From contig CM119265.1 of NCBI GenBank assembly GCA_051294375.1, positions 1,601,248-1,665,247 on the forward strand: 64,000 nt of DNA, written 5' to 3'. Below the pieces are notes generated by a model. It saw nothing but the letters and a program-made list of their open reading frames with translations. It had not been told where the DNA came from and did not search any database. Origin of the DNA: Paraspadella gotoi (taxonomy: Eukaryota > Animalia > Chaetognatha). Position numbers and translations under genes: made by a program. Below, one piece after another: positions 29,101 through 32,100 of the stretch. Within the stretch, counting starts at the first letter, position 1; every line of letters starts with the position of its first letter.

Positions 29101-32100
29101 GCAGAGCCGTGAACGCGGTCCGGGTCCGCCGCCGATGCCGGATATCTGCGACGCCAATCTATCGGCGTAAGGATTTCCCGCCATCGCGGGGCCGGCCGGC
29201 GTCCCTCCGACGGCGCCGCCAAAGTCGGCGTTCGCAGCGCCACCCACGGCGCCGGCGGAATCGTCGGCACCGGACACGCCGTTTCCGATGGAGCCGCCGG
29301 AGGACGTGGCGCCGGAGATGGAGGTCTGAATTGAAAGGATTTGAGATGAATTAAATATGAATTAAGAATGTAGGTTGCGGATAGTCATCTACAGTCCGCT
29401 TAGTGCCTTATCCACAGGTATCTGATTGATCTAGTATATTTAAACGCAATAGACCGATGATTGGTCAGTCCTTATGACTGTAGGTATAAAAGAGAAGTGC
29501 TTACCTAAAAATTATTATTCGTGACAGTTGGTAAGCATTTAAAGAATTGTAGAAGACGAAAATATTTTTCTTTTAATTTCGTGGTTAAGTTTAAAGTTGA
29601 TTATTTTTCATAATTTTTTTCTCTCTTATTTAGACATGTTTAACGTCTCACGCTTTAATGCAAAATTATAATATTAACCACTACGAATTTAAATAAATTC
29701 GTTCCCACCTGACCGCCTCCGCTCCCGCCGCCAACGTTTCCCGCTCCGCCGCTGCCGCTGCCGCCGCCCTGATTGGCGGACGAGGCGGCAGCGGCGACGA
29801 GGTTGAGAAGAAACTTCTTCCTCGATTCTCCGAGAAGAGAGAGAAGCCGAGATTGTGGAAGTTGAGACGTCATCGTGGCCAAAGGGCCGAAGGTTCGCTC
29901 CGCAGTCAGGATGTCCTCCTGGTAAAAGAAGGGCGGGGGATTAGAGAGAGAGAGAGAGAGAGATACCGGCCGATTGAAAGATCAAAAATTTCGCGACAGA
30001 AGAGAGAGCCTGAAGACAAACTCGGATCTCCAAAGACCTTTCTACTCTACCTGTGTAATCGGCTGATCATTGATCCTCTTCAACTGCAAATGGGCCAGCC
30101 TGAAGACAGCATAAGGTCTCCATAGAGAGAATTCTGTCACTGGATTTCCGTCCGAGGCGACGACTAGAGAATCGAGGCGTCGAAGAGACGCGAGGCCGTT
30201 GACTTGCTGGAAACAGTAGATGTTAGTTTCCGTGAAGATCAAACCCTGGAAGAGAGATGTTCAAAGTTGACATAGATCAGGGGCACAGAATCATAGACTA
30301 TAGGAACTTAAGTATAATTTAGATTCAAAATATGAACAATTTCAAGATTATTTGTTTTGCTTACTAGATTAAACTAAATTTTAAAACGAACATAAAAGGT
30401 TTAATATATTTCACTAATATCGGATTTAATTATTATTTAATTCATATTTAATAATGTGATGAGGAGACGGATATTAGTGTTAACTTTTGGAAATAGAGAG
30501 AGCATCAATTACTACATTATGTAAAATGTACATTGTACAATGTACATTCTACTTGTCACGAGACATAAATTCAGGCGCCGCTCGAAGGATTGTTATAAAT
30601 TCAAAAATGATTCAACTGTGGCGACACATTTAGTATCGCCACCCGCCTGAGTTCATCAGCGCAGCCCCGGTGACGTAAGAGTGAGAATTCTCTCTTCCCA
30701 CCAAGCGGTCTTGGGTTCGCGCCCCATTGGTGTCAATGCTAGTAAGCAGAACGGGGCGTCCAACCCACCTGTAGTGTTGGACTACAGTCAGCTCCGAAGT
30801 TCTGAATCTAGCGGTAATTTGTCCTGTCGTGTGGGACTAAACGACCGCTATTCATCATGGGTTGATACTAACAGTCAAACCAAACTTTTCTTTGTTTAAA
30901 AAAAAAAAAATAATAAAACCGATGGGAATTCACAACAAGCTGCAGATCTAACAGTATCCACCTGTACGTTAGGAAACCGCGCTCTGATCTTGTGGAGATG
31001 CTTCGCGATCTCGTCGAATTCGATGAACTTGAAGGAGATGGTGATGACGGCGCCCGCGGCTTGGATGCCCCAGTTGCGGTCGAGGGCATCGAGGGATCCC
31101 GATCCGTAGAGGTTGAGGCAGTCGCCCTCCAACTCCGCCAGGTGGCAGACGTTCAAAGCGCTGGGTTTATAGATATAGAAAAAAAAAGAAAACCAAATTA
31201 AAAACATGATATAAAAGACTAAAGATGGAACACAACTCCTGGGATGGTGCGTTCCCCCAATGGTATTGGTTGAATGATGGTGGACGTGAGGAGGTGTGAA
31301 TATACCGCCACAATACTATTATACCATTATGGTGGACTAAAATCCACCAACCGTTCATCAGCGGCCATTGGTGCCGGAGGCAAGTCATTCGCCTCCAACC
31401 CAAAGGTCCGGGGTTCTAGCCCGGTGGTCGTCTGGCAGTTAAGAGGGACGGGGCGCTTAACCCGCCTGTAACTATGGTGTTACAGCCTGATCCGAAGCTC
31501 AGGGACTGCTTATATTGAACGGTTCTGTCACTAACACATAACAATAATTACTGTCTCTTCATTGGTGAGCCCGACTTCCGAACACAACAGCAACAACAAC
31601 ACTTTCAGGCGACATGCCTCAACCTGGCGATGCACTTTCCACCCACAACACATCAGGCGACATGCCTCAACTTGGTGACGAACTTTCCACCAACAACAAC
31701 AATTCACTGAAGAGACGCAACAGACTTCTCCCTACGAGAGGGGGGATGTATGGTGGACTAAAATCCACCAACCGTTCATCAGCGGCCATTGGTGCCGGAG
31801 GCAAGTCATTCGCCTCCCAACCCAAAGGTCGTCTGGCAGTTAAGAGGGACGGGGCGCTTAACCCGCCTGTAACATGGTGTTACAGCCTGATCCGAAGCTC
31901 AGGGACTGCTTATATTGAACGGTTCTGTCACTAACCAATAACAATAATTACTGTCTCTTCACCATTATGATTCCTGCGTTGATACTCTTTGCTATCCAAA
32001 AGGAGGAGATAAAAGTTTCTGCAAATCAAGCGCACCAGTTGTTATGATATGAAGCTTTCTCAATTTATTATATTAATGTCACGGAATTTTCCAACTAATA

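Follow-up and report, generated by a model that had tools for sequence, protein, structure and literature searches.

The window analyzed here, a stretch of 64,000 nucleotides from the chaetognath Paraspadella gotoi (assembly GCA_051294375.1, contig CM119265.1, positions 1,601,248 to 1,665,247 of the forward strand), contains a 634-bp repeat at positions 31328-31961 that raises the question whether the life cycle of retrozymes with long terminal repeats (LTRs), so far described in plants and with a different ribozyme, also exists in animals. The repeat is an abundant non-coding terminal-repeat retrotransposon in miniature (TRIM) that appears to combine, within its LTRs, a tRNA-like head with a twister ribozyme fold in a conserved, variant form; on the basis of its sequence we regard it, with a probability of roughly 0.55, as an animal counterpart of the plant retrozymes. 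It brings together properties of the animal retrozymes, which lack LTRs, of the plant LTR retrozymes, which carry hammerhead ribozymes, and of Helenus, which has been described without a ribozyme. If active, it would widen the range of circular-RNA retrotransposition to include LTR elements of animals as well as a second class of ribozyme.

Structure and abundance of the element

With regard to anatomy, an earlier sequence-only reading of this DNA proved accurate in most respects: the non-coding element with its two LTRs (hereafter LTR5 and LTR3), the CCAT target-site duplication (TSD) on both sides, a primer-binding site (PBS) one mismatch away from the complement of tRNA-Trp and a polypurine tract (PPT) are all present where it had placed them (Table 1). 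The whole element is shorter than 1 kb, its longest open frame, of 121 aa, has no match in Pfam, and it is almost certainly a real TRIM. Twelve of the 13 PBS nucleotides are identical to the tRNA-Trp PBS of Fig. S2 in a study of Helenus that prints such a PBS for the wasp elements Helenus-2_SyJa and Helenus-2_SyUm and for Gypsy-32_NVi (PMC10886601); nothing matches beyond these 13 nt. One T separates the PBS from LTR5, and the motif is unique in the window at up to two mismatches. The integrated LTRs begin with TA rather than TG, and the 4-bp TSD, which is as in animal TRIM families, was seen at one copy. Compared with LTR5, LTR3 has a 21-nt deletion, and the two also diverge through two 1-nt indels and a pair of adjacent substitutions.

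The head of the LTR is probably derived from a tRNA, judging from an A-box-like and a B-box-like motif which in LTR5 deviate at one position each from the consensus; the latter motif sits in a T-arm-like hairpin. In sister families described below, B-box-like motifs occupy the equivalent place upstream of the twister-like module. The 21-nt deletion removed the B box from LTR3, and because of this loss only LTR5 retains the full order of hairpin, tRNA-like module and twister that the sequence-only reading had attributed to each LTR. TTTT is absent from the element, the first one following at 32087.

The abundance of the element was judged from contigs of public sequencing runs of the same organism, for which the values represent summed contig depth and not copy number. 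In run X5, the LTRs reach a depth of ~11,000 times and the internal part one of 2,300-3,200 times that of the flank. While 135 contigs exit at 31561, 47 enter at 31327, and their flanks are unrelated and AT-rich (agreement 0.43-0.46). The ends of read contigs cluster at the LTR termini (31326-28 and 31561), and because contigs pile up and break there, the element is a repeat that occurs dispersed and in abundance, has fixed ends and probably includes many solo LTRs. Run X9, which resembles a spliced library, also holds contigs of the element's family; the X9/X5 ratio is 0.10-0.16 for the element, on a par with the 0.10-0.12 of two neighbouring repeats, and as contigs give neither level nor strand, it counts neither way. 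Run X10, from another organism, gave two short contigs, which were left out of account.

The twister-like fold and its relatives

In both LTRs the region downstream of the head can be drawn as a fold with the order P5-P2-GA-T1-P1-UAA-P2-T2-P3-P4-L4-P4-P5, an L4 of 8 nt and two pseudoknots, which is the arrangement of type-P5 twister ribozymes (RF02684; PMC5408937). T1, a pseudoknot of 3 bp, and T2, one of 2 bp, are perfect in both LTRs, and the G-A preceding T1, the U^AA site (the caret marks the predicted cut) and the 8-nt L4 agree with the Rfam P5 consensus and with the Schistosoma mansoni table of PMC8501958. A descriptor with the required pairs matches the real LTR and one of 20,000 dinucleotide shuffles. 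When the window was scanned with P1 allowed to vary over 4-20 nt and P2 set to either 3 or 4 nt, all five matches had a P2 of 3 nt with a bulged base and a P1 of 6 nt, a shape displayed by a single one of 55 chance matches in 300 Markov windows. Among the 40 of 84 substitution rows listed, the best-supported read variants over the ribozyme fall into the P3 loop and its edge and spare the core. An assembly error is an unlikely cause of the short P2, because it is present in both LTRs and in a solo LTR, and no indel falls into 31461-63, the 3' strand of P2, among the 12 of 13 indel rows listed.

The same subtype recurs within the window, a point missed by the sequence-only reading. Between 6089 and 62022, Model R1 yielded 20 matches at E<=1, 14 of them at E<1e-6, stemming from at least five repeat families, and the density of twister-like motifs in these 64 kb is unusual. 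The 3' end of the sister family at 30617 is uncertain, a reading as TG...CA/CAAC ending at 30932, and this family as well as relatives near 11845 and near 62150 begin, as judged by eye, with inverted repeats similar to the hairpin of the element's LTR. Loose searches of the sister families for TG...CA ends and TSDs returned low-complexity or chance-level matches, for which reason we refer to them as LTR-like only. Across an alignment of nine sequences, which are related copies and include two partly misaligned rows, 91% of the cells pair, far more than in shuffled and slid controls; T1 appears as CG, UA or GC, T2 as GC or AU, and double changes occur in P2 and P4.

Outside the window, a pattern scan of metagenomes gave two matches, one of which (L002, in an open frame) is a chance match. 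The other, L001, resides on a contig that consists of a 974-nt unit plus a 123-nt terminal repeat and is thus circular or tandem, with a longest open frame of 123 aa. L001 shares the geometry of the element's core, differs from it in the letters of P5, P4 and T1, and possesses a perfectly palindromic P1; its 6-bp P5 and its P4 lie outside the demands of the pattern, and it reaches a sub-threshold 24.2 bits with the Rfam Twister-P5 model. It is a possible viroid-like circle or retrozyme unit. The pattern scan found no match in prokaryote genomes, nor did the strict pattern in viral contigs. Looser patterns gave at least 234 viral loci; of these, a single distinct locus with a P1 of 6 nt, L196 (= L236), survived the structure filter, and Model R1, applied to 100 of 236 loci, recovered nothing strong besides its training sequences. 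L196, in a phage contig (139-198, minus strand), conforms to the descriptor for a short P2, its P5 having 5 bp and its P1 being non-palindromic, and may be due to chance. L131, which passed the filter with an AT-rich P1 of 17 nt, was dropped.

Because the odd geometry recurs with compensatory changes across families of the window and in the metagenome contig, it points to a conserved subtype and not to decay. This recurrence also bears on the idea that the twister is a mere passenger, brought in by a tRNA-headed SINE (short interspersed element) or by a Penelope-like terminal repeat and carried along, without being needed, by a TRIM that expanded recently. Such TRIMs have indeed been proposed to originate from SINEs inserting into an LTR (PMC10886601), several copies in the window have a decayed core, and no tRNA head was found by eye in the P3-less family. 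Diverged families with TG or TA starts and B-box-like heads nevertheless keep the module with compensatory changes, and the read variants mentioned above spare its core, so that a passenger appears quite unlikely.

A further property that the sequence-only reading did not register is the palindromic nature of P1. Fifteen copies were parsed, 13 of which have a P1 of 6 nt; it is fully self-complementary in nine of these 13, corresponding to six of ten distinct hexamers (0.055 by chance). The central pair of P1, which is impossible in cis, is complementary in eight of the ten distinct hexamers against an expectation of 0.38 (p ~0.01 as a hand estimate that ignores relatedness). Such a palindrome suggests a strand-swapped dimer comparable to double hammerheads. 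Without counting pseudoknots, a nested swapped dimer of the two LTR cores scores -51.0 kcal/mol, as against -39.3 kcal/mol when each core is folded singly in a twister frame.

A number of observations weigh against a Pol III-driven, self-cleaving and possibly dimer-gated element. The assignment to type P5 finds no echo in Rfam, with which the LTRs gave no twister match either on their own (E<=10) or in the scan of the whole window (E<=1), and related motifs reach only 24-26 bits at a gathering score of 37.6; scans of the element returned chance snoRNA matches only. P2 consists of three pairs and a bulge in place of the four pairs found in twisters, where altered P2 length has been suggested to disturb the active site, and L4 is closed by A-U in the element's family, although a G-C pair at this position is essentially invariant in twisters (PMC5408937) and is found in the P3-less family and in L001. 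Covariation in the alignment is partly circular, as seven of the nine sequences pass a descriptor that requires T1, T2, P2 and most of P4. Energy models favour a competing hairpin between the T1 strand and P2/T2 (monomer -29.5, dimer -62.2 kcal/mol). Four of the ten distinct P1 hexamers are not full palindromes. P1 has been reported to be dispensable (PMC5408937); a monomer could therefore cut, and a dimer gate may not exist. The tRNA-like head is degenerate, and because neither Rfam nor ARAGORN calls a tRNA, we class it as SINE-type. Finally, the lack of TTTT carries no statistical weight, being shared by 532 of 2000 shuffles, one two-LTR copy alone was seen and no helper element was identified.

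In view of the deviating P2, of a P1 that is a 6-nt palindrome forming no stable hairpin in place of a looped stem, of the L4-closing pair and of the Rfam result, the fold should be named twister-like or a twister variant. The sequence-only reading had called it complete, which is borne out for the type-P5 order and both pseudoknots and overstated for P2, P1 and the L4-closing pair, departures on which that reading was silent. We regard the ribozyme as probably active. Alternatively, the fold might not cut, now or ever in its present form, and serve as a structural signal, for example in palindrome-driven RNA dimerization or packaging for the particle of a helper. The dimer-initiation palindromes of retroviruses constitute an analogue of such a dimerization element. 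Palindromy is the clearest special feature of the fold, its P2 and L4-closing pair depart from near-invariant features (PMC5408937), and no twister is called by Rfam, all of which would suit such a signal. On the other hand, families whose paired positions have mostly diverged still retain the equivalents of the catalytic G and A as well as the U^AA site, packaging would not need the nucleotides of a catalytic site, and the same shape occurs in the circular-looking L001, where no LTR features were noticed. We therefore consider a non-cutting signal unlikely.

Table 1. Features of the element, of its relatives and of the adjoining host gene (window coordinates unless a metagenome contig is named)
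Feature	Position	Strand	Basis or remark
Left TSD, CCAT	31324-31327	+	motif check
LTR5 (5' LTR), 234 nt, TA...CA	31328-31561	+	direct repeat of LTR3; read-contig ends
7-bp hairpin at LTR start, upstream of predicted Pol III start	31330-31349	+	folding, z -3.84
tRNA-like head, predicted Pol III promoter	31362-31429	+	A-box-like 31369-80, B-box-like 31412-21
Twister-like core of LTR5, type-P5 order	31435-31509	+	descriptor, parsing, alignment
P5	31435-40/31504-09	+	
P2	31443-46/31461-63	+	A31444 bulged
G-A before T1	G31447-A31448	+	
T1	31449-51/31492-94	+	
Self-complementary P1 segment, 6 nt, predicted dimer helix	31452-31457	+	self-duplex -8.3 kcal/mol, no hairpin
Predicted cut site	U31458^A31459-A31460	+	
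T2	31464-65/31497-98	+	
P3	31466-72/31479-85	+	
P4; L4	31486-90/31499-503; 31491-98	+	
Internal region, non-coding, 187 nt	31562-31748	+	46-nt duplication 31605-50/31653-98
PBS, tRNA-Trp type	31563-31575	+	single mismatch at 31569
PPT, 11 nt purines	31736-31746	+	ends 2 nt short of 3' LTR
LTR3 (3' LTR), 213 nt	31749-31961	+	B box removed by 21-nt deletion
Twister-like core of LTR3	31836-31909	+	identical to LTR5 core outside P3 loop; predicted cut 31859/31860
Right TSD, CCAT	31962-31965	+	motif check
Decayed solo LTR of the element's family, tRNA head mostly deleted	54194-54378	+	homology search, parsing
Damaged fragment of the element's core	10595-10674	+	homology search
Diverged sister family: TG start, hairpin, B-box-like motif, core 30738-30812	30617-30840	+	decayed core
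P3-less member of subtype	61751-61810	-	Rfam Twister-P5 25.8 bits, sub-threshold
P3-less member, second copy	37705-37764	+	
Further family, B-box-like head, same subtype	55480-55560	-	scan and homology
Further family, other copies	38574-38646; 6711-6780	-	
Further family, other copies	23889-23958; 35548-35620; 55162-55231	+	
Another family, same subtype	24524-24596	-	inverted duplicate 6089-6157 (+)
L001 twister-like motif	387-445 of contig	-	metagenome contig, 1097 nt
LRRC49-like host exon	30962-31160	-	best named match annelid Owenia (83%); spliced contig in run X9

Predicted cycle and known systems

Transcription by RNA polymerase III (Pol III) from the A and B boxes of LTR5 would start near 31362 and, because the element contains no TTTT, would read through both LTRs, the twister taking the place of the T-rich tract of Helenus. 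The U^A sites at both cut positions predicted by the sequence-only reading, 31458/9 and 31859/60, are present and lie 401 nt apart. Cleavage there would free a unit of ~400-420 nt with PBS, PPT and one permuted LTR, which would be ligated to a circle and copied by a Gypsy reverse transcriptase as in the model for plant retrozymes. In sequence, the junction of such a circle would be indistinguishable from an LTR. If both sites are cut, a retrozyme-like cycle follows, because the doubly cut RNA would have no terminal redundancy and canonical strand transfer would thus be impossible. In this cycle, tRNA-Trp would prime the Gypsy-type reverse transcriptase, the order LTR-internal region-LTR would be rebuilt from the circle and an integrase would generate the 4-bp TSD. 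A Gypsy helper fits because of the 4-bp TSD and the Trp-type PBS, as has been argued for animal Helenus (PMC10886601). Provided that the ribozyme is active, we would expect the circle route with good confidence.

In the copy at hand, the 401-nt unit takes its head from LTR3, while LTR5 plus the internal part amount to 421 nt. With a head inherited from LTR3, any offspring would be devoid of the B box, and the copy is probably a dead end. The interpretation given by the sequence-only reading is supported in part: its architecture, a TRIM with a Pol III-type head, a twister-class fold in both LTRs and a two-cut unit of 401 nt, holds up, while the retrozyme-like cycle is a prediction conditional on cleavage at both sites; the reading falls short where that unit's head stems from the LTR without a B box. 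Pairs of 9-bp inverted repeats were noted at 31553-31561/31709-31717 and 31348-31356/31518-31526, which in the predicted circle would enclose the PBS domain and join the two ends of the LTR; the fold of this circle has a z of -3.8 against 40 shuffles.

An active ribozyme might instead mainly make 3' ends in lieu of a Pol III terminator, cutting slowly and leaving the TRIM to replicate as a linear RNA. Many transcripts would then keep their portion of the 5' LTR and with it a terminal redundancy of ~100 nt derived from the tRNA head. The twister does stand at the place of the T-rich tract of many animal Helenus LTRs (PMC10886601), the element is devoid of TTTT, and the competing hairpin could slow cutting. 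However, since the cores of LTR5 and LTR3 differ in no more than the P3 loop, the 3' site has no advantage, and in a strand-swapped dimer both sites would be available together; a role confined largely to 3'-end formation thus seems rather improbable.

Within the retrozyme-like cycle, the palindromic P1 would pair with its copy in the other LTR to give a strand-swapped double twister. Transcription of both LTRs would then favour cutting at U^A, and solo LTRs lying in introns of the host would mostly be spared, such that in this model cutting is likely only when two copies pair. Amphibian retrozyme motifs, which are hammerheads and cut efficiently only as dimers, provide a precedent (PMC7229834). 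We advance the dimer as a conjecture, because the energy model prefers the competing hairpin and P1 is reported to be dispensable; given activity, we see the chances of a dimer gate as evenly balanced. A bolder proposal, which we put forward tentatively and hold to be less likely than not, is that the element represents an animal LTR retrozyme and a naturally dimer-gated twister, each the first of its kind, belonging to a subtype missed by Rfam that would have radiated through several tRNA-headed LTR families of a single genome, would cut only when two copies meet and would also be present in an unrelated, circular-looking metagenome sequence. If this were true, complete two-LTR transcripts would become RNA circles while thousands of intronic solo LTRs remained silent, and the two-copy gate would explain the high copy number of a self-cutting motif inside introns.

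Among known systems, Helenus/TRIMp3 resembles the element as a non-coding TRIM of less than 1 kb with a 4-bp TSD in animals, a PBS and a PPT, and its LTRs have tRNA-like A and B boxes (PMC10886601), to which the degenerate motifs in the head of the element would correspond. It differs in that, in the consensus sequences examined, the tRNA part gives way to a short tail, mostly rich in T (PMC10886601), where the element has a 75-nt twister-like fold. In the available parts of the Helenus text the word "twister" does not occur, and motif searches of its supplement found no twister core, which line breaks every 70 nt could hide; annelids are not among the organisms of the supplement as far as available, and Pol III transcription of Helenus itself is undemonstrated in these parts (PMC10886601). 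Hidden twisters in Helenus from Nasonia and zebrafish were considered and gained no support from the consensus sequences or motif searches in this material. In the same supplement, 12 nt around the predicted cut (31455-31466) are identical in both LTRs of the nemertean element Ajax, which lacks the rest of the core; the identity is due to chance or constitutes a relic.

Plant LTR retrozymes are likewise non-coding, with a PBS, a PPT, a 4-bp TSD and a presumed Gypsy helper, and have one ribozyme per LTR (PMC4918200, PMC7761336), where the element has its ribozyme-like fold; their doubly cut RNA has no R region and serves as a circular template (PMC4918200). They differ in type III hammerheads, a tRNA-Met PBS, LTRs of ~350 bp and their restriction, as described, to flowering plants; circles of 600-1000 nt have been shown for them, whereas that of the element is only predicted (PMC4918200). 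The element has no Rfam hammerhead match and a Trp-type PBS and hence departs from this class in both ribozyme and primer. Metazoan non-LTR retrozymes are also of animal origin and have ribozyme-bounded units of 170-400 nt, yet are described as lacking LTR, PBS and PPT, carrying type I hammerheads and forming tandem arrays (PMC7229834). From type-P5 twisters the element is set apart by the bulged P2 of 3 bp, the palindromic P1 of 6 nt and the A-U pair at L4, and it is not detected by the Rfam model. The twister T-variants of Perere-3 from Schistosoma share the location in an animal retrotransposon and an abnormal P1; they are type-P1 and single, have a P2 of 4 bp and occur 5'-terminally in an autonomous non-LTR element (PMC8501958).

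A search for unusual twister permutations published in 2023 reported none (PMC10085705). In the literature as far as it was available, partly in excerpts, we found no twister in an LTR, no animal LTR retrozyme and no twister with a palindromic P1, although the original twister alignments may hold examples with a short P1. The combination of a Pol III-type LTR with a twister, of which the sequence-only reading knew no described case, was not retrieved from these sources either, and the element appears to be a new variant uniting the TRIMp3 and retrozyme designs. Its ribozyme bears on two structural questions, namely the requirement for a P2 of four pairs and the existence of twisters that, like hammerheads, are built to need dimerization. 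Surveys based on Rfam would appear to undercount twisters in animal repeats.

Genomic neighbourhood

The element is inserted in antisense orientation in an intron adjoining the LRRC49-like exon (Table 1), and further LRRC49-like or leucine-rich-repeat exons are found at 40232-40627 and 47712-48110 (minus strand). Immediately beside the TRIM, ~31224-31312 belongs to another high-copy repeat with an X5 depth of ~4,500 times the flank and many loose ends. The solo LTR is directly followed by a hairpin resembling a miniature inverted-repeat transposable element (54386-54651), the 131-bp arms of which are perfect and gave spurious matches to microRNA precursors. Two duplications, a 5-kb inverted one (~5270-10270/20390-25400) with copies distinguished for the most part by 1-nt indels and a 6.2-kb tandem one (~41300-42150 and 47500-48320), are possibly artefacts of a noisy long-read assembly. 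In addition, the window contains a degenerate 10-nt satellite of 2.2 kb (26900-29100), degenerate TTAGGG-like arrays (1-240, 15660-16110, 41320-41600 and 47520-47770) and two tRNA-Thr(AGT) genes on the plus strand, ~1 kb apart (48609-48682 and 49614-49687).

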